Positions 1,083-60,881 of a stretch of 64,000 nt of DNA are shown here, piece by piece. The translations under genes were made by a program, and so were the position numbers. Position 1 is the stretch's first letter. Every line of letters starts with the position of its first letter. A model generated the notes under the pieces. The model was not told the DNA's origin. It saw only the letters and a program-made list of their open reading frames with translations, and made no database searches. The stretch spans positions 74,833,220-74,897,219 of the forward strand of contig NC_057720.1 in the NCBI RefSeq assembly GCF_004010195.1. The letters are read 5' to 3'. The DNA is from Chiloscyllium plagiosum. Taxonomy: Eukaryota.

Positions 1083-1216
1083 AGGAGAAAGTGAGGACTG
1101 CAGATGCTGGAGATCAGAGCTGAAAAATGTGTTGCTGGAAAAGCGCAGCAGGTCAGGCAGCATCAAAGGAGTAGGAGAATCGACGTTTCGGGCATAAGCC
1201 CTTCTTCAGGAATCTT
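1083..1216 (-). mobile_element. 134-bp Penelope-derived non-autonomous element with hammerhead motif, flanked by a 15-bp TSD
   Basis: CAGATGTGGATATCT occurs at both 1068-1082 and 1217-1231. The body is homologous to copies at 3636-3763 and 8914-9195. Confidence 0.85.
1177..1214 (-). ncRNA. Minimal type I hammerhead ribozyme motif
   Basis: Minus strand GATTC-CTGAAGA-A-GGGC-TTAT-GCCC-GAAA-C-GTC-GATTC. Core intact, 4-bp stem II, stem I with one U.U mismatch. Confidence 0.75.
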
Positions 1217-1405
1217 CAGATGTGGATATCTGTGGATGTGGTGTCAATCAAGTAGGTTGCTTCTTTCCAGTTAGTGTCAAACCTCTCGAATGTTGTTGAA
1301 GCTGCACTCATCAAGGCAACTGGGGTGCATTCCATCACACACCAGACTTGTGCTTTGTAGATGGTAGACAGCTTGACGGAGTCAAAATGTGAATTACCCA
1401 CTACA
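1217..1405 (-). mobile_element. Fragment of a second CR1-like LINE family (host of the 134-bp insert; also 1017-1082)
   Basis: ORF 1216..1401 (LSTIYKAQVWCVMECTP..) matches the + strand copy at 57650-57800 (LSTIYKEQVRSVVEYSS). Confidence 0.7.
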
Positions 1406-1422
1406 AGTAACTTAGAAGAGGC

Positions 1423-1755
1423 TGTGGTGTGAGGGTAATGTCACTGGACTAGGATCCAGAAACCCCAGGTTAATGTTCTACAGACATGGGCTTGAACCTC
1501 AAGACGGCAGACTGTGAAATAAAGCCTGGAATAAAGAATTGGCCTAATAGGGACATGTAACTCGTGTCGATTGATATAATAATTCATTTGGATCACTAAT
1601 ATCCTCTATGGAAGGAAAGCTGCCATCTTACCTGCTCTGGCCTACAAATGATTCCAGACCCACAAGAATGTTAACTGCCCTCTGAGCAATTGGGCTTGGG
1701 CAATGAATGCTGGCCTAGTCAGTGATGTCCACATCCTGTGAATGAATAAAACAAA
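1423..1755 (+). mobile_element. tRNA-derived SINE whose 3' tail is shared with the second CR1-like LINE family
   Basis: Head with A/B-box-like sequence. Tail aatgctggcctagtcagtgatgtccacatc..aatgaataaaa resembles the LINE end at 58130-58170. Homologous to 8452-8745. Confidence 0.65.
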
Positions 1756-1759
1756 AGTC

Positions 1760-2900
1760 TCTTAGCCTTTGACTTTGACTTAGTCACAGTACTAATACGA
1801 CATAGTCCAGTTCAGTCCCTGGTCAATAGTAATCCCTAGGATGTTGATAGTGAGGGATGGTGATACCATTAAAGTCAAGGGATGATGGTCAGAGTATCTC
1901 TTATTAGAGACAGTCATTGCCTGATAATTGCGTGTGGCATGACTATTACTTGCCACTTGTCAGCCCAAGCCTGGATATTGTCCTGATCTGAAGTTGCATT
2001 TGAACATGGACTGCTTCAGTGTCTGAGGATTTGTATATGGTATTGACTATTGTATAATCATTGGTGGATATTCCCCCCTTCTGACCTTATGATGGAGGGA
2101 GGGTCACTGATGAAGCAGCTGAAGATGGTTGGGCTGAGGTGACTGATTTCCAACAACCACAACTATCTTCCTATGTGGCAACCTTTCTGTTAGCTTCAGT
2201 TTTGCTGTAGCTCTGAAGCCACATTTGATTAGATGGTAGTGGCTACAATTTTGAAAAACACTGTCTAACGGCCTTGGTGATTTATTGCAGTGCACTTTGT
2301 AGACAGTACCTATTGCTACAACCATGTGCCAGTGGCAGAGACAGTAACTATTGAAGGTAGTGGATGTGACGCCACTAAAGTGGATTGCTTTGGCCTGGAT
2401 AATGCTGAAGCATGCTGAGTAATGTTGGAGCTGCATTTGTCCAGGCAAGAAGAGAATATTCCTTCATATTACTTGTGCCTTGCAGATGGTGGACAGGCTT
2501 TGGGGAGTCAGGAAGTGAGCTCGTCACCAGTGGATTTCTAGTCTCTTATGTGCTGTTGAAGCCATTGTATTTATACAGCTGGTCCTCTTCAATTTCTGGT
2601 CAATGGTAACCCCCAGGATGCTGGGGAATTCAGCTGTAGTAACTTTAAGGACAGATGGTTAGATTTTCTTTTGTTGAATGTGGTCATGCCTTGGCATTTA
2701 TGTAGTGTGAATGTTATTTACCACTTGTCCAATTCTTGCTGCATTTGAACATGGACTGCATCAGTATCTGAGGAGTTATGAAAACTGCTGAATGTTGTGC
2801 AATCATCAGTGAACATCCCCACTTCTGGCCTTATGATGGAGGGAAGGTCATTGACAAAGTAGCTAAAGATGATTGAGCCTAGGACACTACCCTGAAGAGA
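1760..2900 (-). mobile_element. Decayed CR1-like LINE ORF2 fragments (two overlapping pieces)
   Basis: The block gcatttgaacatggactgc..ccttatgatggaggga recurs at ~1995-2110 and ~2740-2850. Reverse complement matches 57200-57800. Confidence 0.7.
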
Positions 2901-3635
2901 TCATTTAAAGAGCTGAGAATTTAAATAACTAACATAGTGAATGTTTTATGGGTCTTATCAGCCCTCCAAAAGCATTCCCATCTATTTCAAGAATTTGTGT
3001 ATTCCAAACTGTAGATTAAGGTCTTTGCTAAATTGGGTCTGCTTGAAGTCAGTACTGTGTTCTGACAACCCAATAACAGTCACACCCCAGAAACTTATGC
3101 AAATAAAATCACAGTTGACTCACCATTTACCACATTAGTTACCTTTCTCATCTCTTGAAGCAAAACTGAGAAATTGTATTCAGAAACGCAATTACAGAAT
3201 AGTTTCCTGGGATGCGCAGGCTGGATGAATTACCCAAGGGAGATGCCGGGTGACAGGAATATGGTGAGGGGTGGGGGCTGGGTGAGCGTGGGATACTCTG
3301 CAGAGGGAAGGTGTGGACTCAATGGACCCAATGGCCTGCTTCTACACAGTTGGGATTCTATGAACCTATAAAATGGGTCCGCATACTCACCTAAAACTGA
3401 GATGAATGTATCAAATTTCCCATTGGCATATTAACTTCAAGGCAGTGATAAATAATTCACCACTTGATTGACGTTGGCTCTGTGCCTCTGGTGCAGGATT
3501 TTTAAGTACAGAGAAAACTTTTTGAAACTTGTGAGTTGAGCTAAATGTGAAGAAGGTTCAGGAGAAATGAATGGCTGTAGTTCCAATGACAAGATGAGGC
3601 AGAAACAAGCTGGATGATTAACAGTACCGGGAGAT

Positions 3636-3763
3636 AGTGAGGACTGCAGATGTTGGCGAGTCATCGTGGATAAAGAGTGGAGCTGGAAAAAAGCACGGCA
3701 GGTCAAGCAGCATTAGAAGAGCAGGAGAGTTGACGTTTCAGGTCAGAACCTTTCATCAGGACT
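3636..3763 (-). mobile_element. Penelope-derived short element with hammerhead motif (motif 3728-3763)
   Basis: Minus strand AGTC-CTGATGA-A-AGGT-TCTG-ACCT-GAAA-C-GTC-AACT. Body homologous to 1083-1216. Confidence 0.75.
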
Positions 3764-4899
3764 TCCTACTTGAACAGTTAGGTTTACTCTTAAAGCAAAT
3801 TATGATTCAATTAAATATATTAAAAGCAGGCAGTTGTCATAATGACAACTGTTTCATCGATGCCAGCTTAAAACAAGATTTCTTTAACTCATAATTTTTA
3901 AAGTTGCAACAAGGGAACTATCATACTTAACCACAGTTCTGAAGAAACCTCCGCTAGCTGTTTTGTTTCTTGACCTCAGTCTTGAATGTCTTCTCCCCTC
4001 CCCCTTTCTCAAAATTCTGAGAACATGGTTCTGCGCAAACTTTGGAAGTCAAGGTGTCAAGGGACTCTTTCAAATACATTTATCTATAATTGTTTTTCTT
4101 TGTAAAATTATCAAGAAGTTACTACAAACGCTCGGAATATAAAATGTGGAGCAGAGGCAGAACATACCGCCCCTTGAGAAAGTAAAACACTTTAGATCCT
4201 TATCCTGAAGTTTTACTTTAATAATTACAAACTAGATTGGAGCTAGCAGATACAAAATTACTTTTTATTAATATAATTTTTCAAAGTTGTGAAAGATATT
4301 TCAAAGAGTTTAAGATGCCCTCGCAATACTATGAGATACTATGAAAATGCCGACTTGACTTGAGGTTACCAATTGACTTATTTACACTTTATGTTGTCTG
4401 GAGGTGTAGATAATGAACATAGGTGTCAGTCCATAATGGATCTGAGACTGGGGAATGGTCCAAGAAATTGATCATTTGAAACAAATTGGGTCCAGCAGTG
4501 AACAAAGCAAAGGCAGTGAAAATGGGTATTTTGGATACAGTGCAAAAATGTTGCTGCTGTTCTTAAAGCTGCATAGTCTTTTCTCCGTGGGGACATGGCT
4601 GCACACTAAAGATAGATGTGCTTAAGACAGAACACAGCAAAGATGGCTATTTTAGCTTGGGAAGATAAACATTATCTGCCTTGTGTGTTGGCATGGCAGT
4701 GAGTATTCTCACACACAGCGGTGGTTGAATGCTCTGCCTTTTTTTATCCATTTTAAAATGGATTGAATTCAATTGCAACATTTAAAACAGGTGATAAAAT
4801 ACCAACATAATTAATTATTCTGCATCAATATTGGATATGCTATTCTAAATGCCTCTATCACTTTATTCGACTCCAGTGAGGCTGTGGTGTGGAATACTG

Positions 4900-5245
4900 T
4901 AGAAAGGAAGAGCAGGTTTGATCCACAGAACCTACTCCACCATTCAATATGTTCATGGCTGATCTTGTCTCTCAATGCCATAGTCAGCAACTTGTCCCAC
5001 TCTGCTTTTTGTGATAGAGAATTCCACAGATACACTACACTCTGAATAAAAAGAAATTTTCTTCATCTCAGTCCTAAATGGCTGGCCATATCCTGAGACG
5101 ATGAGCCCTTGTTCCACACTGCCCAGCCATGGGGAGCATTACCCTTGCATCCAGTCTGTCCAGCCCTGCCAGCATTTTATGCACGTCAATGCAATCCCTT
5201 CTTAATCTTCTAGACCACTGTCGGCCCAATCGCTCAACATCTGAT
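4900..5245 (-). mobile_element. CR1 LINE 3' end fragment
   Basis: ORF 4811..5035 (YLWNSLSQKA) and a 3'UTR resembling the other CR1 ends in the window. Confidence 0.7.
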
Positions 5246-5455
5246 AACCCTGTTCACATGTACCTGTCACTGAAAGTAAGTGTGGCAGTAAAGAAAGCAA
5301 ACTATATGTTGGGCTTCATAGCGCGTTCTAGACCACTGTCGGCCCAATCTCTCAACATCTGATAACCCTGTTCACATGTACCTGTCACTGAAAGTAAGTG
5401 TGCAGGTACAGCAGGCAGTAAAGAAAGCAAACTATATGTTGGGCTTCATAGCGCG
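5208..5455. repeat. Tandem duplication (118 bp + 130 bp) spanning the junction of two oppositely oriented CR1 fragments
   Basis: 5208-5325 matches 5326-5455 except one substitution and the 12 nt caggtacagcag absent from the first copy. Confidence 0.9.
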
Positions 5456-7060: not shown

Positions 7061-7100
7061 TGTTTGTGTTTGGAATTTATTTTCTTTGGAAAGAGGGGAA

Positions 7101-7382
7101 TGTTGTGCATGTGTTGCAGCTGATGCACTGATGATGTCATCACCGTATGATGACATGTGACCTAGTGACATGAAGCTTTCAGTCTCCACTGTAATAAGCT
7201 CTGTCCTCTTGGAGCATGACATACTGACAAAGGCATGCTGCAGTACAACTGAACTGCTTATCCTGAGCCTAGGTAGGCAAGTGGCTGTGATTGTAATGTG
7301 CATATCTAGCTCTCACAAGCTGGAATAAAAGTTTCTTGTATTCTTCAGTACTATATGGCCCACTCCCTATCCTTATGTGACA
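7101..7382 (+). mobile_element. Candidate LTR preceded by a polypurine tract
   Basis: GGAAAGAGGGGAA (7088-7100) directly before TGTTG; AATAAA at 7324; ends ..TGACA. Confidence 0.55.
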
Positions 7383-7523
7383 GGAGCTTTGTGTCTCAAT
7401 GTAATAATGAAAGATCATCAATACATCAGCTACCACATCACCTCACCTCACCATAGCATATCACATGAATACTACTGGTGTAGACCCACCCATACAGCTG
7501 TGCTAAGACATCCATGTTCCATC

Positions 7524-7887
7524 CCTAACCTGGACATCTTTGGACTGTGGCAGGAAACCGGAGCTCCTGGGAGAAACCTATGTACACACAGGGAGAAGGT
7601 GCAAATTTGGACGGTCGCCTGAGGCTGGAATCGAACCCGGGTCCCTGGCACTGTGCACGCTGTCTCATTTATTCAAAGGATTTCACATTACTGGCTGGTC
7701 CAATATTTATTTCCCATTCCTAATTGTCCAGAGGGCAATTAAGACCCAACAATATTGCATTGGTCTGGATTCACACGTAGACCAGATTAAGTCTGGATGG
7801 CAGTTTCCTTCCTTCAAGGATATTAGTGAACTATCTATTTTTTCCCCAACAGTAGGCAATGTTTTCATGGTCATCATTAGATTCTTA
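7524..7887. repeat. Left arm of near-identical inverted duplication (partner 8524-8886)
   Basis: Reverse complement of 8524-8886 with about 4 substitutions and 1 indel. ORFs 7540..7920 (+) and 8523..8957 (-) share sequence. Confidence 0.95.
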
Positions 7888-8913
7888 CAGTCAAGGCCAA
7901 TGTATCATTTGCCTCCCTAACTGCATTGGCTTGCTGAAGTTAGGAAGGAGTAGAGTGAGCGTTATACTACCATAAGAGTATAGCTCCTCTGGACTAATTT
8001 TATTAATTTGGATTTCACATGAATGTGAATTTTATTCTTTTGTTGGGAATGTTTGGTTTAGTTGGCATTGTCCCCTGACTCTGGATGGTGAGGTCCAAAG
8101 CACCCCTCTAATATGGGACCATGGACCTCATTTCGAGCAAGCCGTGAGCTGCAACAGGCAACTTGCCAGGGAAGTGAGCCTGAAGAACAGCTTACTGTGA
8201 CACCAGTAACAGACCTTGGATAAGCGGTGGAAGGGGATGAATGGAAAATGGAGAGGTTCACGATGTGGAGGCATTGAATGTGGGAGGAGGCAGCAATGGC
8301 TGAGGTGGATGGGGCGGGGAGGGACAGGTACTGGGGGCTGTGGAGTTGGTTTTTATGGGTTGCGGGTTTTAAATTCTGGTAATGTGTTTCAAAATGTATC
8401 TCAGCAAACATATCACCCAAAGAAGGGGTGTTGATTATCTGAAGACCCAGGTGGTGTTCTGGGCACCCAGGTTCAAATCCTCTCATGGTGAAATTTTAAT
8501 TTGATTAAAAATAAATTTGAAATTAAGAATCTAATGATGACCATGAAACATTGCCTACTGTTGGGGAAAAAATAGATAGTTCACTAATATCCTTGAAGGA
8601 AGGAAGCTGCCATCCAGACTTAATCTGGTCTACGTGTGAATCCAGACCAATGCAATATTGTTGGGTCTTAATTGCCCTCTGGACAATTAGGGATGGGAAA
8701 TAAATATTGGACCAGCCAGTAATGTGAAATCCTTTGAATAAATGAGACAGCGTGCACAGTGCCAGGGACCCGGGTTCGATTCCAGCCTCAGGCGACCGTC
8801 CAAATTTGCATATTCTCCCTGTGTGTACATAGGTTTCTCCCAGGAGCTCCGGTTTCCTGCCACAGTCCAAAGATGTCCAGGTTAGGTGGATTGGCCATGC
8901 TAAATTATCCGTG

Positions 8914-9195
8914 GTTGAAACTTTATTGCTGGAACAGCACAGCAGGTCAGGCAGCATCCAGGGAACAGGAGATTCGACGTTTCGGGCACAGGCCCTTCTT
9001 CAGGAATTGTAGAGAGAGGCAGAGAGCTTCTTCAAGGAAGGCATCCTTGTAAGAGGATTCGCAGTAGGTTGAAATCTTCGAGGAGAAAGTGAGGTCTGCA
9101 GATGCTGGAGATCAAAGTTGAAACTTTATTGCTGGAACAGCACAGCAGGTCAGGCAGCATCCAGGGAACAGGAGATTCGACGTTTCGGGCACAGG
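8914..9195 (-). mobile_element. Tandem Penelope-derived unit: two identical 79-bp direct repeats, 203-bp period
   Basis: 8914-8992 is identical to 9117-9195. One complete and one half hammerhead motif. Confidence 0.85.
8972..9007 (-). ncRNA. Minimal type I hammerhead ribozyme, fully paired
   Basis: Minus strand ATTC-CTGAAGA-A-GGGC-CTGT-GCCC-GAAA-C-GTC^GAAT. Stem I ATTC/GAAT, stem II GGGC/GCCC, palindromic ACGU helix III, GUC cleavage triplet. Confidence 0.85.
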
Positions 9196-9384
9196 GGAAA
9201 GAGTCTTCAGAGGGTCATATAGACCTGATGATCCGAATGGCCTCTATTTGCACTGTAGGGGTTCCACGTTTCCATGACTGTCAGGAGATGCAATTAATCA
9301 AGGTTACTTCTTGCAGAAAACAAGATGTCCAATAATTTGAATTAAGCAATCACATTGAAAAGTAAAAAGTTACAACTGAAAGGT

Positions 9385-9605
9385 AAAAATCGAAAGAAGT
9401 GCGGATGCTGGAAATCAGAAGCAAGAACAGGAATTGCTGAAAAAGCTCAGCAGGTATGTCAGCATCCGTGGAGAGAAACCAGAGTTAGCATTTTGGATCC
9501 AGTGAGATTCTGAGGAAGGGTCACCTGACCCAAAACATTAACTTTGATTTCTCTCCACAGATGCTGCCAGACCTGTTGAGCTTTTCCAGCAATTTCTATT
9601 TTTGA
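9385..9605. mobile_element. Palindromic (head-to-head) Penelope-derived element with decayed hammerhead (9508-9542, +)
   Basis: Arms aattgctgaaaaagctcagcagg..tggagagaaa and tttctctccacagatgctg..agcttttccagcaatt. Centre CTGAGGA-A-GGGTCA-CC-TGACCC-AAAAC. Confidence 0.75.
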
Positions 9606-14620: not shown

Positions 14621-14639
14621 CACAAAATCACAGAGGTTA

Positions 14640-15654: not shown

Positions 15655-15955
15655 CCTCCAGTGTGGCAGCACTGAGGCCCATTGAGTGTGTACCAACCCT
15701 CTAAAGAGCATTCCACCCAGACCCACTCCCGTATCCCTGCATTTCCCATGGCTAATCTACGTAGCTGCATATCTCTGGACAATTTAGTATAGCCAATTCA
15801 CCATCTTTGGAGTGTGGGAGGAAACTAGAGCACCCAAGGAAACCCACACAAACATAGGGAGAATGTGCAAACTCCACACAGAGAGTCACCCAAGGCTGGA
15901 ATTGAACCCGTGTATCTGGTGCTGCGAGGCAGCAGTGCTAGCCACCATACCGCAC
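15655..15955 (-). mobile_element. HE1-type SINE
   Basis: Reverse complement matches 43172-43502. Confidence 0.8.
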
Positions 15956-17325: not shown

Positions 17326-18257
17326 TTATTAGAGTTATCGTATGAATGCCTGGGGAGATGGACCCAAGTTTGAAGAGCCAAGTCTGGAGATTACAAAGAC
17401 CCATATGAGGCTTTCAGCAGATAAGTGAGGCAGGATGATGTTCGATGGTGCCAGATGAGAAAAAGACATTCTTGGTCCTATTCAGGGATATGGGAGAAGT
17501 GCAGGAAATTGGGATTAATTCATTTTTAGTGCTAGTTCTGTCAGTGCAGATTCGAAGGGCCAAAGGGTGATGTATAATTTCATTCCAGGGCTTTCATCGC
17601 ATGGTGAGATATAGCACAAGATTACAATCAGCTTCAGGGTCAGACAGTTGCCGTGAAGAGGAATAGAGTTGGAAGTAAGGAACAATGTTTGTTGAAAGTA
17701 CAACGGCTTTGGAGCTCCCAATAGATAGTTGGAGGAAATTTCTATTTGTTCACTAGGAGTCTGATAATTTAGTGACAGTAGAGGAGAGGTGTTAAAGGTG
17801 GATAGTGTGGACAACTAAAGAAACAAGCAGACCAAGATGGACAGCTAGGAGAGATGGTCAATGAGAAGTTTTTTACGGTATTCTTTCACAGGATATGGGT
17901 ATTGTTGGCAAGTCCAGCACTTATTGCCCATTCTGATTGTCCCTGAATTCAGGGACTTCCTGAGCTGCTTCAGAAGCCACTACTGGATATGGAGTCAAAG
18001 AACAAACACAATACAGCACAGAGCCCTTCAGCCCTCTAAGCCTGTGCCAACACATTTTACCCTTCCATACTAAACTGTCGTCACTTACAGGATCTGTATC
18101 GCTTTATTCCCATCCTATTCATGTGTTCGTCCAGGTGCTTCTTGAATGCTGCTATTGAGTCACGTGTAGGTAAGAGCTACATGTAGGCCAGAGCAGGTGA
18201 GGATGGCAGATTTCCTTTTCTAAAAGACAGATATCAACCAAATGGGTTTTTATGAAA

Positions 18258-18412
18258 CCAAAACAGAAATTGCTGGAGAAACTCTGCAGGTCTGGCATCA
18301 TCTGTGGAGAGAAAGCAGAGTCAATCTCTCGGGGTCCAATGACCAGCTGAGTTTCTCCAGCAACTTACGTTTTTAACTTCAGATTTCCGGCATCCGCAGT
18401 TCTTTGTTTTTT
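18258..18412. mobile_element. Internally deleted palindromic Penelope-derived element
   Basis: Inverted arms ttgctggagaaactc and gagtttctccagcaa; same family as 9385-9605. Confidence 0.65.
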
Positions 18413-21549: not shown

Positions 21550-22190
21550 AAAGAACTTGCATATATACACTACTAACAAACACAAGGACATCACAACTCC
21601 TTTTCAACTCTATGCACTGTTCCAACATTGGAAAAATAACAGCCAATTTGCACATAATGGGGTTCCTGAGGTGACAATGCAGTAAATTTCTAGATAATAC
21701 TTTTTATTATTGAAGTAATATTGACTGGATAAAATATATTTATGTTACTATGGGGAGAATATCCTTCTGTTCTTTTGATATTGGCTCTGGTACGTCAAGT
21801 GGATGGGGAGACAGGGCCTTGGATTAACTTCTCATCAAAGATATGGAGGTGTCTGTATTGGACTGGGGTGGACAAAGTTAAAAATCACACAACACCAGGT
21901 TATAGTCCAACAGGTTTATTTGGAAGTACAAGCTTTTGGACCACTGCGCCAGACCAGCTACCTGACAAAGGAGGGGCACCCCGAAAGCTTGTACTTCCAA
22001 ATAAACCTGTTGGACTACAACCTGGTGTTGTGTGACTTTTAACCCTCTTCAAAGAGACAGCACAGCCTCTCTCAATATTGCACTGGGCTATCAGCTTGCA
22101 TGATGTGTTTTAATTGTCTGCAATGGGGCCTGAGCCCATCATTTCCCTGACTCACGGGTAAGAATGCTGCCAACTGAGCCAAGACTGACA
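21550..22190 (-). mobile_element. Old tRNA-headed Deu-domain-like SINE, interrupted at 21842-22048
   Basis: Minus strand begins TGTCAGTCTTGGCTCAGTTGGCAGC (A-box-like). Central GCAAATTGGCTG. Tail ..TATATGCAAGTTCTT. Confidence 0.55.
21842..22048. mobile_element. Palindromic hammerhead-bearing element (second family), 60-bp inverted arms, 7-bp TSD
   Basis: 21877-21936 versus 21984-22043 are 58/60 complementary. TCAAAGA occurs at 21835-21841 and 22049-22055. Confidence 0.85.
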
Positions 22191-23924
22191 TTCAGAAGGT
22201 GAGAGCATGTAGAACTGAATAAAATGCAGGTGCACACCAAAGGTGAAGCACACCTTCACCTAGCATGGCATTTAACCATACAGCTGCCAGACCACACCCG
22301 ACAACAGTTCAACCAGGCACTCGTTAACCTCTACATAAGTTCCACTGAAGTGCGCAAATGACAGAGCTTTGGTTTGTGAAAAGTAAATGAACGGTCTTTG
22401 TGGAAGTAACCCTCGCTTGGTAACAACCAAAGCAACCAGTATTTATTAATAGTACTGCATGGGAAAAATGAGAAAATTCCAACACAGTTACAAACTGTTA
22501 TTTTTAACCCCCTGCCCCCAACACCAAAATAACAGTTGATAAAGTGAAATTGCTTCACAGCTAAAGCATTGCCACAACGCAAGGCTAGATTATGAGGCAG
22601 TGCTTTGGCAGACGAGCTGCTCTGGAATAAATCCCACTGTTATAACTCTAGGGCTATTAACATTCTCAGCTCTGGCTTTCTCAAAAGGAAAACAAATGGC
22701 TGAGTTTCTGAGTGATGGAGCATATCATCATTGAGACATCTGCACAGCGTTCCATCCTGTTCGATTTACAGAACCTTTTCAACCCAACTCTGATTGCATT
22801 CACTGCACTTGGTCCACTGCCTGCACAACGTACTCATTCAAAGCAAAAGGGGATGATTTGATTACATTCAGAGGCTTTCACACAGATCATCTCTGCCACT
22901 CTTTCCAACTGTGTTGCTTCCAGTCATTTGCATCCTTCACATGCTTAACTCCAATTCTTGTCTTTTCTAAAAAGTTTGTCAAACATCTTAATTTATGAGA
23001 GCTTTATACTGAAACTTAACGTGGTCAAATTAATTTACTCCTGAACTTTCAGCTTGATCTCCTCTTTAACTGCCTCCTCTCCCATCAACGACCATGCTTT
23101 GTTCATGGTTTTTTTGCAAAGCCTCGATCACCACCCTTCACTGGCTGTGCACCGTGACTTGGCCTTTGAAACATTCACAGTGTGGCCAACAGCCTCTCTG
23201 ACTTTGTTCTCTTGTATGTGGGCGGTACTCAGTCTCTGCTGAATGCCTCCGCTGAAAGCTGTGACAGGAACTCAGTAAATTGAGAATCCCGAGTGTCCAC
23301 TGTATTGTGCAAAAGTGTACATTCATGAGGTTCAAAACAGCATAGGTCATCTGGAGCATATAACACAGGATATAATAGCTTGATTAAAGCTGGACCTTTT
23401 TACATGATGCTTAAGTAAATACATTCTCCATTTCATAAGGTTACATTAAGCCATTATATTGTTAAAGTTAACTTTACCGGTTAATGACATTTGCGTTGGC
23501 GTCAGATGGATAACAACCATTTATACAAAGGTGTCCTTTAAGGTGAACTGGCTACTGGATCACAACCTGCTAAGCATCTATACCTTTGCTTCAAAGACTA
23601 CTGCAAGTAAGGTATGAAGATACTTTACAATGATACAGCCAACTGGGAGACAGCTCGTGAAGGCTATTGCCTGTGAGGGCCGACTATTTGAAAGGGCAAT
23701 GGAAAAGGAGGGCAGGAGCAAAAACCCAGCTGGTCCAAGAGAGGATCTGGAAAAGTCAGAGGCCAGCAGATCATGCACCTTCTCAGCCTACTATCTTGTC
23801 CGGCATTGCAGAGATACCTGAATTGGGCTCCTAAATTACACCATGCAATGTTCAACACAAAAGTGACCATCATGGCACAAACCATCATCTTACAAGATGG
23901 AAGTTGCCTCTTGCTTAGATATGA

Positions 23925-24042
23925 AGGTGTTGGTGCTGGACTGGAGTAGATAAGGTCAGAAGTCACATGACACCAGGTTATAGTTCGTCAGGTTTATTTG
24001 CTATCACGAGCTTTCGAAGCGTTGCTGCTCCATCAGGTGAAG
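23925..24042 (-). mobile_element. Single-arm copy of the second hammerhead-bearing family (motif 24005-24039)
   Basis: Minus strand CAC-CTGATGG-AGCAGCAACGCTTC-GAAA-G-CTC-GTG. The arm acaccaggttatagt is shared with 21877-21936. Confidence 0.7.
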
Positions 24043-26264
24043 TGTTTTTTGCTTAGTTGGTTATTTTGTTGATGCAAAACTCTCTTATCTGCAAAGTAAT
24101 TCTGCTCTGGTCTCAAAGATAGCTCAGCATGATCCTATTGAGATCCAAAGGATTAAGGAAACAGTTTGTGATCTTACCAAGCTATAAACAGGAATAAAAT
24201 CATCTTGGGACTATGTACATCACTGGCTCTTTCACTTTTGATGGTTAACACCCCATCTGAGTGCAGTCACCATGCATTGTGTACTTAGTCTAAATGCAGG
24301 ATTGTATTTATCTGCAATTGTTTTGTCTCATATCTTTGATAAGCCAGCTAAGTGTCTTAAATGTAGACAAAAGCAGAGGAATTTCAGACAAACAAATGAG
24401 CTAGTGCACTGTTTATATCTGCAAAATGAGATTTCAAATCAATTTTGTTCTCCAATCAGAAAAGGCTAAATGATCCCAGTAGTTGCCATCTGCACTGCCA
24501 ATCAAAACTTGTGAAAGAAGAAATGATATAGTCAGTGTACATCATAAATCTCAAGCATTTGCCTCATTTGCAAGGTGATACATTCCATTCCTCCTGAGCT
24601 TCTCACATCTTGACTTGCTAATGTGCTTCTTCCTGAGAAGATATTGACGCACTATGAATTCATGAACAGATGAACTCATCTTTGTAATATAATGTAATAA
24701 CAGGTTATGTAGGAGTCCTCACATAAATGTAACTCATTCTACACTTCACGGATGAGCTGCTGGACACCATCAAATGGTAACAACTTTCCTCACAAATCTC
24801 TTTGTACAGAATAAAAAGTGCCAGACCTGTCAGATAAGCCACGATTGAATCACATGGCAATAAATTGACAAAATTAAATGTCTAATTTGTGACTTGTCCA
24901 AAACAAGAAGCATTTCTCTACATCTAGCCCATGGCCTCTTTCATTATCTTAACCATAATCCATTAGGCCACTTTCAGCCTTCTCGGTTCCAGAGGAGAGA
25001 GACATCAGTTGTTCTGCCTAACCTGCCAAACAGTTTTGATGTAATTCATGGAGATTTATTGCGCAGTCTGTGGATTTTTTATAAGGTAAAATCTCCAGCT
25101 GTGCACAGTACTAGATATATCTACCTCACTCTTCTGGATGCACTGGCTTCTATTTCATTAGATTTTCACTGTTTCCACACCCTTTTAATGTGGGTGCTGC
25201 TGTTCTTAGAGTTTCAATGAGCACAAATTAGTTGCTGTGTTCATAACACCCAAAATACTTGCCTGAAGATGTGAAAGGTGCTGTATAAATGTGCATCTTC
25301 TTTGCTTTCTCTTTAACTGTCGAACAAGCACTTGATGGATAATGTAATCTCTCCATTTGACAGCAGGGAGTATCAAAGCCCAAGTCCACTCTATCCTCAA
25401 GCTATAGGGACACTGGTTAAGAGTCAGGTTCACAAGTGCTAACTGATCTCTCGTCTCCCTGCCCCGGGGTAATCGAAAGGCCATCTCAGTTATGGATGGG
25501 ATCAGCCAGTTCAGCACAGGCTTTAGACCAAGCGTTAGCAACCATCTAGAATTGCATCAAAAGCCTTTTATCTTCATCTCTGACTGTGGACAGTGAATGT
25601 CAGTGGATTATTTAGCAGTGAAGGGTATCAGAGTTAAGCTCATTTCTGTTCTGGAACGTATGCACACTTGCCAGCGAGAATCACAAAATACCAACCTGAG
25701 GTGGAAATAATCCCTGATCTAGTGTTCAAATTTCAAAGTAACTGTTAGAATTTTATACAGTTTGAAGTAAATAAAAAGGGCCGACTTAATTACAAAACTA
25801 TTGAACAATTTGTGAACTCAAATGACCAAATAAACATTAACTGCAGGAGCAGAATGCAGAAGCTTACATCATATCTAGGTCACATTTGCATTACAAAAAC
25901 ACCACATTTTTGACACAGTGCTCATGGGACTACGCATGACTTGTCATTTCTATTGCTTGCACATAGTAAAACACTATAGACTGTCATCTTTCAGTGCAGG
26001 GCTGAGATCTTTAGACACTGCAACGCCACATGACCAAGCAAAAGAATTCTCCAATTAATCTTGAAATCAGGAGGAGTATGATGAAGAGCAAGGAAACATG
26101 GAAGTGTGATATCTTCCAGCGTTTGAGGCATTAGCCAGAATGATATCCCTGTTCTTCTTCAAAGTAGCCATGTTCTGTCTCTTTCATCCTCACAAACAGA
26201 TAGTTGGGAGATGGCACCACTCCCTCAAGGACTGCAACGGTACAAGGAGGCAGCTCCCAATTAA

Positions 26265-26365
26265 CTGTTCTGAAGAAGGGGCATTGCCAAAATGCTAACT
26301 GCTTTCTCTCCACATATACTGCCCAGACCTGCTGAGTTTCTTCAGTAACTTCTGCTTTCGTTTCA
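26265..26365 (+). mobile_element. Decayed Penelope-derived hammerhead element inside an old SINE
   Basis: GTT-CTGAAGA-AGGGGCATTGCC-AAAAT-GCT-AAC followed by tttctctccaca..gacctgctgagtttc. Confidence 0.6.
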
Positions 26366-43171: not shown

Positions 43172-43502
43172 GGACGGTGCGATGGTTCAGTAGTTAGCAC
43201 CGCTGCCTCACAGTGCCAGAGATCCGGGTTTGATTCCAGCCTCGGATGACTGTCTATGTGGAGTTTGCACATTCTCCCTGTGTCTGCGTGGGTTTCCTCT
43301 GGATGCTCCGGTTTCCTCCCGCAATCCAAAGATATGCAGATCAGGTAAATTGGCCGTGCTAAATTGCCCATAGTGTTAGGTACATTAGTCAGGAGTAAAT
43401 GTAGGGGAATGGGTCTGGGTGGGTTACTCTTCAGAGGGTCGGTGTGGACTTGTTGTGCCGAAAGGCCTGTTTCCACACTGTAGGGAAGCTAATCTAATCT
43501 AA
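43172..43502 (+). mobile_element. Full-length HE1-type (V-SINE) tRNA-derived SINE
   Basis: A-box tggttcagtagttagc, B-box ggtttgattcc, V-domain tgtggagtttgcacattctccc..ggtttcctcc, (ctaat)n tail. Confidence 0.9.
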
Positions 43503-44398: not shown

Positions 44399-45574
44399 TG
44401 TCCGTCAAAGACCACTATAAAAAAAAGCAGTGTCGTCAAATGTCTGGGAGCTTCCTGATTGGGAAATGTGCATGTTAAATGGGCAAAAAATGGTGGGAAA
44501 CTGTAGGAAGGGAGGAAATGGTGCATCATTAAGAAAATAACAAAAATACTCACAGAACCCAACACAGAGCAGCTGGTATGAAATATCATGGCTACTGTTT
44601 TATTAATTGCTAAGGGGAAATGATATGTTACATAAGGCATAAGAGGATGTGCACAACATGAAACATATTAATGAAGGGAACTCAAGCCAACATGTGCCAA
44701 GTTCACTAAAAAAGGGAATGTGAAGTGGATTCAACCTGCAGTATAAACAGTGCTTCATTGTTCAGCTGTCTCCCGACCTCTTCCAAAGATATGTTTTCAC
44801 ATTATATAATCACACTTGTCGCAGGCTTCAGCAATTACCATTATTTTTGAGGTTAAAAGCACAACTGCTTTCATTCCAAGCTGGTGGGATGGGACTAAGA
44901 AAGTACACAGAGTTCACAGTGAGGCCAGTCATTACAATTTAAAACTAACAAAAACAAGATATAATGCTTTTTGTACTTGTCATTTTCACCCTTCCCAGTA
45001 ACCAAGCAAGATGCAGGAAATATGAAAATGCAACTCTCACCCACATTACTACTCCATTGACATTCAATATATAATTAAGTGACTTGCTCCTTTGTATTAC
45101 ATCCCACGTGCAGTTCATTAATCTTCCAGTATTCATTTTTCACATTCACATCAAACATCTACTCAGCCACTTGAAGGAGCAGCAATGAAAATCAGATACT
45201 GTGACATGGTAGGGTCCACAAGTGTTCTCAAGGAGTTGGCTGTCACTATGATACCAAAAAGGATAGACTTTATACTGTGCGCAAAGCCCTATGCCTAGTT
45301 AGTGCCAAGCTCCTTTGGCATCCTCGACATTTCATTTCATTTGCTGGCAAGCCAGCCAATGCATCCGGCATACCCAGCAGCTTCATTCAGTAGCCTGTCC
45401 CATCGTAGTGATTCAGTACATGCCCTGAATCAGAACTCCAACGCAACCTCATCCTCTTGAGAGTTGGCACCTTTCAAATCTTTGGTTTTAGCTGGCTTGA
45501 TCCAGTTGTTCTATTGCCTGCAGATCACACCTATATGCCATCATCTAAAGTACATGCAGTCTTAGAGTCTGAGA

Positions 45575-45865
45575 TTACCTACAGTGTGGAAACAGGCCAT
45601 TTGGCCCAACAAGTCCACACTGACCCTCCAAAGGGTAACCCACCTAGACCTATTCCCCTTCATTTACCCCTGACTAATTCACCTAACACGACGGGCAATT
45701 ATAGCACGGCCAATTCACCTAACTACAATCGTTGGACTGTGGGAGGAAACCCATGCAGTCAATGGGAGAATGTGCAAACTCCACACGGACAGTCACCCGA
45801 GGCAGGAATTGAACCTGGGTCCCTGGTACAGTGAGGCAACAGTGCTAACCACTGAGCCACCATGC
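45575..45865 (-). mobile_element. HE1-type SINE
   Basis: Reverse complement matches 43172-43502. Confidence 0.85.
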
Positions 45866-46234: not shown

Positions 46235-47015
46235 CTATTCATTCTGAGAATGTGGGCTTCGCTGGTTTGGCCAGCATTTATTGCCTAGCCCCAGTTGCCT
46301 TTCAGAATGTGGTGGTGAGCTGCAGTCCATTTGGTGTAGGGAGATCTACAATGCTGTTAGGGAGGGAGCTCCAGGATTTTAACTCCGTAGCATTGAAGAA
46401 ACAGCAATATATTTCCCCATTAGACTGTAAATGTCTTGAAGAGGAACTTTCACATGGTAGTATTCCCATGTATTTCCTGCCCTTGTCCTTCTCAGTGGTA
46501 GCGTTTGTGGTTTGGCAGGTGCTGTCTAAATAGGCTTGGTGAATTTTTGCAGATAATAGATAGTATACACTGCTGCTACTGATCATCTGTCGTGGAGGGA
46601 GTGGATATTTGGGGATGACACGCCAGTTGAATGAATTGCTTTGTCCTGTTTGGTGTCAAGCTTCTGAATGTTGGAGCTACACCCATTCAGGCAAGTGGGG
46701 AGCATTCTACCACACTCCTGACTCATGCCTTGTCGATAGTTGATAGGCTTTGGAGAGTCAGAAGGTGAGTTATTTGCTGCAGTATTCCTAGCCTCTGACC
46801 TGCTCTTGCAGCAACAGTATTCATACAGCTAACCCAGTTGAATTTCTGCTCAATGGTAGCCGCCATGATGTTGATTATGTGGTTCAGTGATGAAAATGCC
46901 TAATTGAATGTCCAAGGATCATAGTTAGATTCTCTCTTGTTGGAGATGGTCATTGCCTTGCACCTGTGTGGCACAAATGTTACTTGTCACATGTTAGCCA
47001 AAGCTTGGATGTTGC
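46235..47015 (-). mobile_element. Second-family CR1-like LINE 3' fragment
   Basis: Reverse complement of the 57380-58170 region (KSWSSLPNSIVDLPTPNGLQ). Confidence 0.75.
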
Positions 47016-47342
47016 CCAGTCTCCCCAATGTAGAGGATACCGCATCGGAAGCAACGTACACAATAAATTATATGAGTGGATGTGCAAGTAAAACTTTGAT
47101 GGATGTGGAAGGCTCCTTTAGGGCCTTGGATGGAGGTGAGGGAGGAGGTGTGGGCACAGGTTTTACAGTTCCTGCGATGGCAGGGGAAAGTGCCAGGATC
47201 CAGGGGCGTTCTGTCCTTGTTATGGTTGGAGGGGTGGGGTCTGAGGGCGGAGGTGCGGGATATAGACGAGATGCGTTGGAGGGCATCTTTAACCACGTGG
47301 GAAGGGAAATTATGGTCTCTAAAGAAGGAGGCCATCTGGTGT
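47016..47342 (-). mobile_element. Penelope-like element fragment: RT thumb end, Cys-rich linker, start of GIY-YIG endonuclease
   Basis: ORF 46994..47383: MASFFRDHNFPSHVV..PGTFPCHRRNCKTCAH..FTCTSTHIIYCVRCFRCGILYIGETG (xIY..YIG motif). Confidence 0.9.
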
Positions 47343-48563
47343 GATATTTTTCTATGTATATCACCGGCCATGTAATCCTTCATGGTGAATAAGTTCTCAT
47401 ATATCTCTCCAGTATGTGTATGTTTTTAAATTTAAATTAAACTTACTTATATTCAGCCCTCAAAGGCTAACTGCTGAAACAGATGCTGTCAAAAATTACC
47501 TGGCATCTTGTTAATTCCCCAAAACAATTTTAACAGAGGTTGTTTCTGCGATACTCACAAAAGTCAGGTACCCTACTGTGTTGAAATGAGCTGATGCATA
47601 TTTATCACTCAGTTAAGTGATGTGGAGCATGAGACAAAATGAGCAAATTCAGTACAAAGCACTTTAGAGGTGGTTTCACGTACTGCACAACCCAATGGAC
47701 ACAGATCATGCTATAGAACAATGATATTCAGACCTTCAACAAAGGAATTTCACTAAGAAAGGCCATGGTGAAGGGCATTATGTGCCACGGGGCTGCTAAC
47801 TGATATAACTCATGGTAGCTTATATTAGAATGTAAATAGTTTTTTAATAGTGTTCCCATTTTTGCATTTCGGTGGAGGTACTTAAGAGTACAACGCTGAA
47901 ATGAGAAATTTGATACTGTTATTGTTTTTGCTGTAATGTCCAACTTGAACTGTTTTGCCAGGTACTTTATAGATAATTTCTGTATATCTTGAAAATAAGG
48001 GACAGAAAATCTTTTTGTAAGTATTGTATTGATTTGATTTATAAATCTGTTTGGCTTGTCTACTGCCTACTGTGCAGTAATAATCTAAAAGGTCTATACT
48101 TATCTCTCTTGTGATAGTACCACAGATTTAACCATGCCTTTTATCTTTGCATTCAAACCATGTTTACGAACGTTGTTACAAACAGCAATAGATTTTAGAT
48201 AATGGTTCTTCTGTACATATTGTATCTAGTTATTCCTTTGCTGATTTGAATGCTATTTCTGGCTAATTTGAGCAGGCATAGAGGGTGACTTCGCAGATTA
48301 ACATATAAAAACCCAGCCTGTTTAACATCTCTTCTTGTATTGCTACTGAAGTACAAAAATATAGAATAAGCTGCCGTCTGGTCCTCTCCCTCATTTATAC
48401 AATGGGACAAAATCAAAATTTACCCCAGGCGCATTCATGACTTCATAATATTTCAGGAGCTTTGAAGCAAACCTTATGAATCTTATTTGCTCGTGAAAGA
48501 TATCATGTTGCAACTCATTGGCAATGCCTTTCAAAGGTGGATTGTTGCTGTGTCTTTCCACAG

Positions 48564-56200: not shown

Positions 56201-56376
56201 AAAACATTACCGTGCGATCCTTATTTGAAGGTGGTTTTTGAAATGTTACCCTGCGGGGTATCAAACTTTAAAGCTGGAACTTTCTGCATGTACAAAGTGA
56301 TCCTTTGAATTTAGTGAGGGGTACAAGCAGAAGATAGCCATAAAAAGCTCTTGACCTAGATATTTAGTAATCAATT

Positions 56377-56933
56377 GGTGGTTAGTACTGCTGCCTCACA
56401 GTGCCAGGGATTTGGGTTCAATTCCAGCCTTGGGTGACTGTCTGTGTGGAGTTTGTACATTCTCCCCATTTCTGCATAAATTTCCTCTGGGTGTTCTGGT
56501 TTCCTCCCATAGTCCAAAGATGTGCAGGTTAGGTGAATTAGCCACACTAAATTGCCCATACTCTTCAGAGGGTCAGTGTGGACCCGATGGGCCGAATGGC
56601 TTTCTTCCACACTGTAGAAATTTGATGATTCTCTGACCCTCTGAAGAGCATCCCACCAGATCCACCTCCCTACCCTATCCCTGTAGATCTACATTTCCCA
56701 TGGCGGATTCACCCTGCCTGCACATCCCTGCACACCATGGGCAATTTAGCATGGCCAATCCACCTAACCTGCACAAATCTGGACTGTGGGAGGAAACCAG
56801 AGCATCTGGAGGAAGCCCATATAGACACATGGAAAATGTGCAAAACTCCATACAGTTCAGTTACCCAAGGCTGGAATTGAATCCAATTGAACTTCCTGGT
56901 GCTGTGAGGCAGCAGTGCTAACCACTGAGCCAC
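56377..56933. mobile_element. Two HE1-type SINEs tail-to-tail (56377-56635 +, 56636-56933 -)
   Basis: Both match 43172-43502, in opposite orientations. Confidence 0.85.
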
Positions 56934-56934
56934 T

Positions 56935-58170
56935 AACAGCCAATAATCTACTCAGTGCCGCCAGGGCTAGCCAGCTCCTGACTTCATTACAGCCTTGGTT
57001 CAAACATGGACAAAAGAGCTGGATTCCAGAGGTGAGAAGAAAGTGACAGCTTTTGACTTCAAGGCCACATCCGACCCCAAATGGCATCAAGAAGCATTAG
57101 CAAAACAGGAATCAATGGGAATCAGAGGCAAACTCTCCACTGGAGTTCTAATTGGCACAAAGGAAGATGGTTTTGGTTGTTGGAGATCCTCAGCACCAGG
57201 AAATCTCTGCAGGAGTTCCTCAGGATAGAGTCCTAGGCCTAACTTTCTTCAGCAGCTTAATCAATGATCTGTATTCCATCATAAGGTCAGAAGTGGGGAT
57301 GTTCGCTGATGACTGCACATGTTCACCATCATTTGCAACTCCTCAGAATACTAAAGCAGTCCCAGTTCAAATGTAACAAGATCTGGACAATATCCAGTCT
57401 TAGGCCAACAAGCGACAAGTAACATTCGTGCCACACGAATGCCAACCAATGACCATCTTCAATAAAAGACAATGTAAGCATCAATTCTTGACATTCAATG
57501 GTTTTACCATCAGCAAATCCCCCACTATCAATATGCGGGGAGTTTGCATTAAATAGAAGTTCAACTGGACCTGCCATATAAACACAGTGGTTACAAACGG
57601 GTTAGAGGCTAGGAATGCGGTGAGTAACTCACCTCTTAACTCCCCAAAGCCTGTCCACCATCTACAAGGAACAAGTCAGGAGTGTGGTAGAATACTCCTC
57701 GTTTGCTTGGATGGGTGCAGCTCTAACAATATTCAAGAAGCTTGACACCATCAAAGACAAAGCAGCCTGTTTGATTGGTACCACACCCACAAGCACTCAC
57801 TCCCTCCACCACCGATACTCAGTAGCAGCAATGTATGTCATTTTAAGATGCACTGTGGAAATTCATCCAGGTACCTCAGACAGCACCTTCCAAACCCATG
57901 ACCACTTCCATCTAGAAGGACAATGACAGCAGATACATGGGAACACCACCACCTGCAATTCCTTTCCAAATGAATCACCATCCTAGTTTAGAAATATATT
58001 ACTATTCCTTTACTGTCGCTGAGTTAAAATCTTGGAATTCCTTCCTTAAGGGCTTAGTGGACCAACCTACAGCACTTGGACTGCAGTAATTTAAGAAGTC
58101 AGCTCACCACCACATTCCGAAGGGCTACTAGGGATGGGCAAGAAATGCTGGCCAGCCAGTGGTGCACATA
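56935..58170 (+). mobile_element. Second-family CR1-like LINE, RT to 3' end, decayed
   Basis: SAGVPQDRVLG..FSSLINDL..VGMFADDCT (RT motifs); FKKLDTIKDKAACLIG. Confidence 0.85.
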
Positions 58171-58884
58171 GAGTCAAAGAATCATAGAGATGTACAGCAC
58201 GGAAATAGGCCTTTCAGTCCAACTCGCCCATGCCAACCTGATATCCTAAATTAATCTAGTCCCATTTGCCAGCACTTGTCAAACTACAAATATAAAAGGA
58301 AAGCCCAAAGCTTAAAAACAGGGAGAGTTTCCAATGGATTGAAGCAGTGATTGGACATTTCCAAAATATTGAGAGCTAATGAAAATGTGTTCTTTTCCAG
58401 GAAATCAAACAAAATGCTTGACCAACTTATAGTCATGACATTTTGATTGTAGATGGCACAAAGACACAAGAGCAAGTTTTCAAAATTTACATTGAAATGC
58501 AAGCTATATCTCAAATCTGCATTCAACCAAAATGCTCACCCAGTTAATTTTGATACTTTTAAGATTTGGAAAATCGCTTTGGCGTCTCTAATCCTACCTG
58601 AGGGAAAAGGTCACGGAAAGGATCACATTAACAAAATAACAGTGTTCTTAAGCAGTCATTAAACTCTCCGCATTCCAATGTCAACATTTCATGCACGAAA
58701 TTGAAGTTCCAGACAGAATTGCGCTTTAAAACATTACTGCATGCAGAAATTTATATTTACAATTTGTTATAGGAGAATCTTTGGACATGACATGTTTAGA
58801 TAATATTGATCCTAGCAACAGAATCACCAAGTAGAAAAAATGTTTAAACTATGGTAACCTCTTGGTATAATTTTCCCTCACCAG

Positions 58885-59051
58885 ATGGTCTATCTGCCTT
58901 CAGAGCATTTCTCCGTTCGGAATACAGTGAGGAGAACATTGAATTCTGGCTGGCCTGTGAGGACTACAAAAAAACCAAGTCTCCTGCAAAACTCACTTCG
59001 AAAGCTAAGAAGATCTATTCCGAGTTTATAGATGTTCAAGCTCCAAAAGAA
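58885..59051 (+). CDS. rgs8: RGS8-like gene, coding exon 5 (RGS domain: [55 protein letters not shown])
   Basis: ccctcaccag acceptor, 167 nt, [12 protein letters not shown] signature. Donor is GAA|GCAAGT (GC type). Confidence 0.95.
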
Positions 59052-59094
59052 GCAAGTATTTGTTTCTTTCAGAAAAACACCTCAATGAGATAAA

Positions 59095-60200
59095 GACCAT
59101 AAGATATAAAAGCAGAATTAGGCCATTCAGCCCATCGAGTCTGCTCCACCACTCAATCATGACTGATGTTTCTCAACCTCATTCCCCTATCTTCACCCCA
59201 TAACCTTTAATCCCCTTAATAATCAAGAACCTATCTCGATCTTAGATACACTCAATGATTTTGCCTCCACTGTGTTCTATGGGAACGAGTTCCATTGATT
59301 CACCACCCTCTGGCTGAAGAAGTTCCTCCTCAGTTCTTACGGGTTGTCCTTTCACCCTGAGGCTGTGGCCCCGGGTCTTCATCTCTCTTACTAGTGGAAA
59401 CATCTTCTCCACGTCTACTCTATCCAGGCCGCTCAGTGTCCTGTAAGATTAATTGAGATCCTCCCCCGGCACCCAATCTACTTAAATTAATTCAAGTACA
59501 GACCCAGGATCCCCAGCCCCTCCTCATACGACAAGCCCTTCATCCCCAGGATCATTCTTGTAACCCTACCCTGGAACCCCCTCCAACACCAGCTTACCCT
59601 CCTTAGATCCACAATATTCCAAATGCAGCCTGACCAGAAACTTATAAAGTCTCAGCTGTACATCTCTGTTCTTGTATTCTAGCCCTCTCAAAATGAATGC
59701 TCACATTGCATTTAATTTCTAAATGCCAACTGAATCTGCATGTTAACCTTAAGCGAATCCTGAACTTGGACTTTCTTTGTGTTTCAGATTTCCATAGACT
59801 TTCCCCATTTAGAAAATAGTCTATGCCTCTATTCTGCCCACCAAAGTGCATAACCTCGCACTTTCCCACATTGTATTTCATCCGTCACTTCTTTGCCCTC
59901 TCTCCTAGCCTGTCCAAGTCCTTCTGCAGCTTCCCCATCTCTTCAACACTATCTGTCCCTTCCCCATCTTTGTGTCATCTGCAAACTTAGCAATAATGCT
60001 CTCAGTAGCTTCATCCAGATCAGTAATGTATGATGTGTATAATGGGTAGAGTGTACACTATAGTGTAATCTAATGTATAATGTACCATTCATAGCTGTGG
60101 TCTCAATATGGACCCCTGTGGAACTCCACTCATCACCAGTTGCCATCCGAAGAAAAAAAATCTCTTTATCCCCACTGTCTGCCTTCTGCCAGTCAGCCAA
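59095..60200 (-). mobile_element. 5'-truncated CR1 LINE in the last intron
   Basis: SGVPQGSILRPQL, KFADDTK and MKYNVGKCEVMHFG on the minus strand; (ataaga)-type tail at ~59090. Confidence 0.85.
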
Positions 60201-60782
60201 TTAAAATCCCAGAAAACAGGTGAAACGGTGCAGAAATGTAGCATCCTGAGGTAGTTGTGTTGTAGCCATGTGCTCATTGCCTGGAATGAGATTAAAGCTG
60301 TGACTGCTTGCATACTAAAGTGGCTCAAAACAAAAATGAAAGCTCATTTCTACTTTACTCTGAATTTCATGATAATGCATCATTATATTACAGACTGCGG
60401 TCGAGATCATTTGGCCCATCCTATCAATGCAAGCTGACAAGTAGCCATCCTGCCTAATCCAAATTCCCAGCTCTTGGTGTGCAATCTACCTAGGCTATGG
60501 CACTTCAATGGCAGATCCAGAAACCTCAAATCAAAAAATCAAATGCAATTTTCTGCCATTCCCAAGCTTTGAGACAGTGAGTTCCATATGACCGAATCCA
60601 TGCTACCCTCTGGGTGATTGCATTTCCATCCTCAGTTCCAAAGAAAACAATTCTAGTGTATCCAAAAATAAAATTCTTCAATCCAGGCAGTATTCCTACC
60701 AGCTTCTATCTCATACGATACATCCTTCCAATAATGAGATGACCAGAGCTGAATACCGTTGACCAACTTGAGGCAATCTCAA

Positions 60783-60881
60783 ACAACAACAGAAATTGCT
60801 GGAAAAGCTCAGCAAGTCTGGCAGTATCTGTGGAGAGAAATCAAAGTTAACATTTCAGATTGAGTGACCCTTCCTCAGAAC
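60783..60881 (-). mobile_element. Penelope-derived short element with decayed hammerhead (60846-60881)
   Basis: Minus strand GTT-CTGAGGA-A-GGGT-CACTCA-ATCT-GAAA-T-GTT-AAC; same family as 9385-9605. Confidence 0.7.

Follow-up and report, generated by a model that had tools for sequence, protein, structure and literature searches.

Hammerhead motifs head short repeats of three families

We analysed a 64,000-nt stretch of the Chiloscyllium plagiosum genome (assembly GCF_004010195.1, contig NC_057720.1, positions 74,833,220 to 74,897,219 of the forward strand; hereafter the window), in which an earlier note, made from the letters alone, had listed eight hammerhead ribozyme motifs in dispersed, Penelope-derived repeats. 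The motifs head 90–130-nt repeats of three families, A, B and C. These are very probably end pieces (pseudo-long terminal repeats, pLTRs) of at least three coding Penelope-like element (PLE) lineages, that is, likely dead, 5′-truncated and often inverted copies made by the elements' own reverse transcriptase (RT) and GIY-YIG endonuclease. The insertions and the coding remnant found in the window are listed below, with positions such as C3 and G12 referring to the hammerhead core.

1083–1213, minus strand: family A (subfamily A1) pLTR stub with tail; intact core, C3 at 1209, predicted cut after 1182, U-U mismatch in stem I; 15-nt target-site duplication at 1217–1231 and 1068–1082
3630–3763, minus strand: tailed pLTR stub of family A (subfamily A2); AGGT/ACCT in stem II, core intact, first pair of stem I gone through CpG decay
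8914–9195, minus strand: family A (subfamily A3) partial tandem; 5′-truncated module with tail (9195–9081), 73-nt body (9080–9008) and whole tail-less module (9007–8914) with a fully paired hammerhead
9388–9604, both orientations: family B head-to-head insertion; inverted arm with tail (9506–9388), direct arm (9508–9604) with hammerhead, G12>A
18254–18411, both orientations: B-type head-to-head pair; modules without the first half of the hammerhead
21844–22043, both orientations: family C head-to-head insertion; inverted arm with tail (21950–21844), direct arm (21955–22043) with hammerhead, G8>A; imperfect target-site duplication of about 11 nt
23922–24039, minus strand: tailed pLTR stub of family C; core short of 2 nt
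26263–26364, plus strand: old family B stub; G12>A and U16.1>C
60775–60882, minus strand: family B stub; decay in stem II and helix III, all core letters kept
47015–47344, minus strand: remnant of family A PLE coding sequence that covers the RT-endonuclease linker and the beginning of GIY-YIG; no attached pLTR

A hammerhead-shaped motif is present at all eight positions given in the earlier note. The catalytic letters are intact in four of them (C3 at 1209, 3759, 9003 and 60878, all on the minus strand) but broken in the other four, at 9510 (plus; G12>A), 21962 (plus; G8>A), 24036 (minus; 2-nt loss at A9) and 26270 (plus; G12>A and U16.1>C). With a strict descriptor (intact core, stem II of at least 4 bp and stem I of at least 2 bp) the window gave three matches, against none in 200 dinucleotide shuffles, and with one mismatch allowed four, against a mean of 0.125 in 40 shuffles; the 3759 copy does not pass the strict form because its first stem I pair was lost. 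An Rfam scan of the window did not find the hammerhead family at E ≤ 5, and its best match, MIR860, below the gathering score, was the family C palindrome. Where the note suggested about one motif per 8 kb, the window holds 13 segments in nine insertions, or one per 7 kb; the inverted arms and the pair at 18254–18411 had been overlooked.

The repeats are terminal modules of coding PLEs

The remnant at 47015–47344 gave no Pfam match and was identified through its relatives; used as a lead, it pointed to frames for RT and GIY-YIG at other places in the genome. For family A, coding GIY-YIG/open reading frame (ORF) sequence ends 80–228 nt before the core, on the same strand, at 20 natural loci, and the frames match Pfam GIY-YIG and RVT_1. 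In families B and C, 20 loci each were chosen for a long upstream match. Same-strand PLE coding matches end ~270 nt upstream in 17 of the 20 selected family B loci, three of which span RT to endonuclease (best E = 6e-87), and ~620–750 nt upstream in seven of the 20 selected for family C, with RT matches at one locus (L224). Subfamily A2 has same-strand PLE coding sequence upstream in four of 30 loci (L245, L248, L263 and L268). Because PLE coding sequence precedes the modules in A, B, C and A2 loci, we take the repeats to be terminal modules of coding PLE lineages, with RT plus a GIY-YIG domain at the C terminus upstream of the terminal repeat as in endonuclease-positive PLEs. The Penelope origin and the mobilisation by PLE proteins put forward in the note are both supported.

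A CX2-5CxxC linker is present in all three families; it is assigned to Neptune and Nematis in the part of PMC8557442 cited here, and a place with Neptune is tentative. The ORF start has its ATG at +162 from C3, with frames of up to 326 aa, and gave no match at 0.9 in an ESM Atlas search. Relatives of the element protein occur in Hemiscyllium (87% identity), Chiloscyllium (65%) and Rhincodon (62%). Two long 'ORFs' (1509 and 806 aa) were discarded as runs of assembly gap. In one acid phosphatase isoform of the whale shark, the annotated C-terminus is the N-terminal region of the PLE ORF, which may be an exonised fragment or an annotation error.

Abundance in the genome

A systematic sample of 80 × 10 kb at fixed positions on 31 large contigs (769,634 called bases, ~800 kb) contained 266 segments (152 A, 68 B and 46 C), with 58 head-to-head pairs among them, hence about 208 insertions or one per 3.7 kb; the reversed-sequence control gave no match. 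The strict descriptor found 48 matches in the sample, 47 of them within PLE modules, and none in five shuffles. Modules (with up to 400 nt upstream) and coding remnants together cover 47,491 sampled bases, about 6%. Genome-wide, counts of exact patterns, which are lower bounds, gave at least 99,766 perfect cores with no match in the controls: 81,303 for A (including 33,157 A1, 12,477 A3 and 18,175 old A), 229 for B and 18,234 for C. As the sample exceeds the exact A count ~1.4-fold (~25 matches, our own tally), the total is put at 0.7–1 million insertions. Copies 95–99% identical to the A1 stub at 1083–1213 are present elsewhere.

Anatomy of the insertions

The modules have two fixed 3′ ends ~35 nt apart, at about +90 and +126 from C3 in A and B and at +82 and +115 in C. 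Among 64 young head-to-head pairs (sample plus extra copies), exactly one arm carries the tail, that is, the ~35-nt longer end, in 62. A target-site duplication flanks 42 of the 64 pairs and 11 of 40 solo stubs, against eight of 777 mismatched flanks used as control. Tallies of 5′ ends and target-site duplications that include copies from outside the sample count one array several times, and sample-only counts are used where possible. This optional 30–40-nt tail, with an inverted 5′ copy and a target-site duplication, is the anatomy of endonuclease-positive PLEs; it is reported as typical of PLEs in the cited parts of PMC8557442 and PMC3846280 and is also found in PMC11167929.

The earlier note had proposed about three non-coding families amplified like short interspersed elements (SINEs). 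For the bulk of the copies this is not supported: each family belongs to a coding PLE lineage as its end module, and segment lengths run as a continuum into the GIY-YIG and RT region, with 55 of 273 sampled segments extending more than 20 nt upstream of the core. A master and a fixed structure of their own, as in SINEs, are not apparent, the flanks and junctions being unique except in the small groups of mini-elements described below. Moreover, the stubs end exactly at the family 3′ ends. In the anole PLE studied in vitro the two ends are RT start sites, and the RNA requires about 55–60 nt further downstream (PMC11167929). By analogy, a stub would not serve as a template again, because it stops at the RT start site and lacks the downstream stretch needed there; this would be the main argument against SINE-like self-amplification.

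5′ ends cluster at the front edge of the hammerhead

In the 273 sampled segments, 81 start 1–10 nt before C3, seven at 11–20 nt and 55 further upstream; hence 81 of the 143 copies reaching the front edge of the core stop within 10 nt, against seven of 62 in the next 10 nt. Of 95 copies taken by exact core in genome order, 49 start within 10 nt (A1, 22/31; A3, 15/22; C, 8/21; old A, 4/21). The cut site shows no such accumulation (five of 273 sampled segments at +27 to +33) as a self-cleaved template would leave. We rejected a missing upstream subfamily as the cause of the pile-up, since unique flanks account for 70 of 76 and the remaining six stem from one locus retrieved several times, and a splice-acceptor origin, since by eye AG makes up only about five of the 15 cases with G. 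The base before the start, where it is not a templated C, is G in 15 of 26 cases (27% expected, p = 0.0009), a cap-like excess that is suggestive only, because several of these G fall inside the target duplication or the inverted arm. The front-edge sequence in A and B would fit a Pol II initiator. In the passages cited, the initiator-bearing internal promoter of Drosophila Penelope lies well upstream of the hammerhead (PMC2377424, PMC4209133).

Tentatively, and with less than even confidence, we suggest that PLE RNA starts at the initiator-like site on the hammerhead front edge. RT would begin 90 or 126 nt in, reach the RNA 5′ end and have to jump templates, as in retroviral strong-stop DNA. 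On this view a failed jump would leave a stub, a jump to the 3′ repeat a seamless long copy, and a jump onto a broken or short element RNA a tandem retrozyme, formed as the element inserts. Consistent with such a scheme are the cluster of 5′ stops with its G excess, and ORF fragments of many lengths joined to this same front edge genome-wide, four such joints occurring in the contigs of an independent DNA run; against it, old A mostly reads through the edge (14/21). It is here that an experiment would be worthwhile. At four loci (L354, L337, L240 and L118) the body sequence of one PLE family runs straight into a module cut short near +32 to +47; in two of them the module belongs to another family, and these joints are possible jumps between families.

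Conservation of the fold

Covariation was examined by comparing majority letters in six groups, aligned from 407 gap-free copies of all retrieved loci with duplicates removed by flank. The 11 letters of the core CUGANGA..GAAA..UH, which comes with stems I and II, are the majority letters in all six, in agreement with the minimal type I hammerhead described in the note, and the core is kept in 43 of 72 alignable sampled copies. The claim of compensatory changes across lineages also stands, both partners having changed in seven of 11 stem pairs (three pairs in stem I, three in stem II and one in helix III) while the majority core letters are constant apart from CpG decay; the comparison covers few independent events along few lineages. 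Two pairs do not hold, one stem I pair being U-U in A1 and old A, and one C-C in C. Of the individual pairings listed, ATTC/GAAT in stem I applies to the 9003 copy only, as ATTC/GATT, where a U-U mismatch occurs, is found in the 1209 copy and its whole subfamily (66 of 75 copies). AGGT/ACCT in stem II does mark a subfamily (22 of 23 copies have A-U, though G-C is canonical at that pair). The attribution of defects to CpG decay is borne out in the subfamily alignment, and the helix III palindromes at the level of families (ACGU in A and B, AGCU in C). The A-U at the base of stem II in A2 (for example at 3730–3763), where hammerheads nearly always have G-C, is a natural variant.

Individual copies have decayed, the core surviving in 13 of 51 copies of B and in 14 of 69 of C. 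Covariation between lineages together with decayed copies therefore points to selection on the source elements, not on the copies, and indicates that the hammerhead fold has probably been kept there. Core columns also vary less than those downstream in old A (0.039 versus 0.108) and B (0.071 versus 0.184), scarcely in C (0.078 versus 0.088), figures biased by the clean alignment required for inclusion.

The motifs might instead be catalytically dead relics, kept only within a promoter or protein-binding site of the PLE RNA. In its favour, the most abundant subfamily has only two consecutive stem I pairs, A2 lacks the canonical G-C at the stem II base and the helix III self-duplex is weak (−3.1 to −4.5 kcal/mol). 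In addition, core mutants of the anole PLE left insertion in vitro unaffected (PMC11167929), and eight of nine frog dimers failed to cleave in the portion cited of bioRxiv 10.64898/2026.07.22.740005. The constant core letters, the double changes in the stem pairs and the lower, if alignment-biased, variability of the core in old A and B argue against relics, and we consider this reading unlikely, though well worth keeping in mind.

Tandem mini-elements are a small minority

The partial tandem at 8914–9195 is built as module, 73-nt body and module, the body being the start of the PLE ORF (ATG at 9044 plus 12 codons), and its junction is found once in the genome. With one whole and one truncated motif it falls short of a tandem of at least two units each with a complete hammerhead, which no window copy forms. 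Such tandems exist at a minority of loci elsewhere (L093, L137 and L301), with units of 194–421 nt and a hammerhead in each. One insertion (L301:874–2362) holds six hammerheads at spacings of 224, 194, 194, 224 and 559 nt, is bounded by a short direct repeat and contains a deeper ORF piece in its last unit.

Most junctions differ between loci and within arrays. In L093, one junction occurs three times in a single diverged, gap-free insertion, and the same junction occurs in L376. To judge from their sequences, the mini-elements with recurring junctions are small non-autonomous groups, fitting the model of retrozymes arising from PLEs in the cited portion of bioRxiv 10.64898/2026.07.22.740005.

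Exact matches to a 320-nt junction number 83, compared with 295 to the uninterrupted ORF. However, 17 of 30 inspected loci meet an assembly gap at exactly 168 nt upstream and four more at 422 nt. As one repeat contig may have been pasted into many gaps, this family is suspect, and its reading as an amplified 83-copy mini-element was set aside as probably inflated by gap filling. The same concern makes a 197-nt junction (10 loci) doubtful. Identical young junctions lie beside gaps at 168 or 422 nt at L309–L330 and L358–L367, and shared junctions in the assembly can be gap-filling artefacts. For expression we examined ~2% of one poly(A) single-cell run, a library ill suited to the test. It gave 518 reads on the 320-nt unit, on both strands, with no pile-up of starts or ends and none listed across the junction, a pattern that fits passive read-through; a second run yielded no reads on the unit.

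The note had inferred a retrozyme-like system, a reading that fits a small minority (two of about 208 sampled insertions, or ~1%, have the ORF-start spacer of tandem mini-elements, in addition to 8914–9195) and not for the bulk. If non-coding mini-elements or tandem units were the main masters, their RNAs would self-cleave as dimers, circularise and be copied by PLE proteins into monomers. The hammerhead-bearing tandem units, the recurrent L093 junction, the abundance of the 320-nt junction and the fully paired stem I of the youngest subfamily (114/114) would accord with this. The rarity of the ORF-start spacer, the gaps at 21 of the 30 inspected 320-nt loci, the varied junctions (that in the window being unique), the absence of a pile-up at the cut site and the read pattern of the poly(A) run speak against it, and we hold it to be quite improbable. 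Chance motifs or assembly artefacts, to which short-read gaps around young copies might point, are refuted for the motifs themselves by 47 of 48 strict sample matches lying inside these elements with none in five shuffles, by the 81,303 exact family A cores against none in the control and by matching sequence in other public data sets, and may apply to the shared junctions only.

We return to end pieces of coding PLEs, whose module is identical with the 3′ end of coding copies and whose 5′ ends cluster 1–10 nt before the core. Judging from the anole PLE in vitro, copying would start at the two fixed internal RNA 3′ ends and run back through the hammerhead. The hammerhead of the source elements would cleave weakly, as a dimer or with protein help, and genomic stubs then decay. 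A small minority, tandem mini-elements keeping the ORF start, may be remobilised in trans. Several points weigh against this account. The long B and C loci were selected for upstream similarity, so that the share with coding sequence upstream is no estimate for the population. An intact full-length ORF was not encountered, the longest gap-free RT-endonuclease frames being 449–518 aa and long ones meeting assembly gaps, and the ORF start is tied to the RT-bearing frame by homology only. A stub truncated at the ribozyme cannot show whether its template was full-length or mini-element RNA. Finally, L378 and L379 have two junctions in common, at 96.7% identity, on different chromosomes and free of gaps, hence some mini-elements spread.

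Other repeats of the window

A 341-nt inverted duplication (7524–7864 and 8546–8886, 99% identical), comprising a SINE end and flank, lies 28 nt from the A3 insertion; it could be linked with that insertion or stem from the assembly itself as an artefact. At 5208–5455 there is a fragment resembling a long interspersed element, with short near-identical tandem duplications spaced at 118 and 130 nt. Abundant SINE-like repeats, distinct from the hammerhead families and by eye of tRNA-derived look, occupy 8755–8915, 15837–15947, 43190–43482, 45572–45859, 56378–56844 and 62037–62316.

Comparison with known systems

The minimal hammerheads of metazoan PLEs, as presented in the main results and discussion of PMC4209133, share with those described here a bulged base before stem II, a short stem I, a palindromic helix III and several consensus families per genome. 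They too are mostly single motifs ascribed to truncated PLEs, with some pairs on opposite strands. A2 differs from them in having A-U instead of G10.1-C11.1. The hosts in those sections are fish, coelacanth, frog and reptiles; sharks are unnamed there, and the supplements may name them. We found no shark-specific account and no strong-stop model in the literature searched, although the supplements of this 2014 paper and of the 2026 preprint (bioRxiv 10.64898/2026.07.22.740005) may name shark families.

In the cited parts of PMC8557442 and PMC3846280, Neptune-type PLE units likewise have RT followed by GIY-YIG, a CX2-5CxxC linker, heavy 5′ truncation, partial tandems, inverted 5′ copies, a one-sided 30–40-nt tail and target-site duplications. 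Unlike these descriptions, our families show an extreme excess of 90–130-nt stubs that begin, at their 5′ side, on the ribozyme's front edge. In Poseidon of Anolis carolinensis (PMC11167929), too, two internal 3′ ends downstream of the hammerhead define the tail, and genomic and RNA ends do not lie at the cut site; here no pile-up was seen there among genomic ends or in one ill-suited RNA run. The Poseidon ORF starts at stem II, whereas here the first ATG of the long frame lies 162 nt after C3.

With non-LTR retrozymes, as characterised in the cited portions of PMC7229834 and of the 2026 preprint, the C. plagiosum elements share short tandem type I hammerhead units derived from PLE pLTRs, and monomer derivatives. 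Here the likeness, known from DNA sequence, extends to ~1% of insertions, and the units keep the ORF start and have varied junctions. The portion cited of the preprint gives PLE-derived retrozymes in one cartilaginous fish, with a mean unit of 363 bp, and up to 120,000 motifs in axolotl.

The kind is thus already described, as minimal hammerheads of truncated PLEs in vertebrates (2014) and as tandem forms in one cartilaginous fish (2026 preprint). The scale is unusual: the at least 99,766 exact cores compare with about 4,000 motifs in coelacanth and 9,000 in Xenopus in the cited sections of PMC4209133, and at least 100,000 perfect cores in roughly 0.7–1 million insertions therefore let this genome serve as an extensive natural archive of the starts, stops and jumps of PLE copying, and also of the birth of retrozyme tandems from PLE ends.

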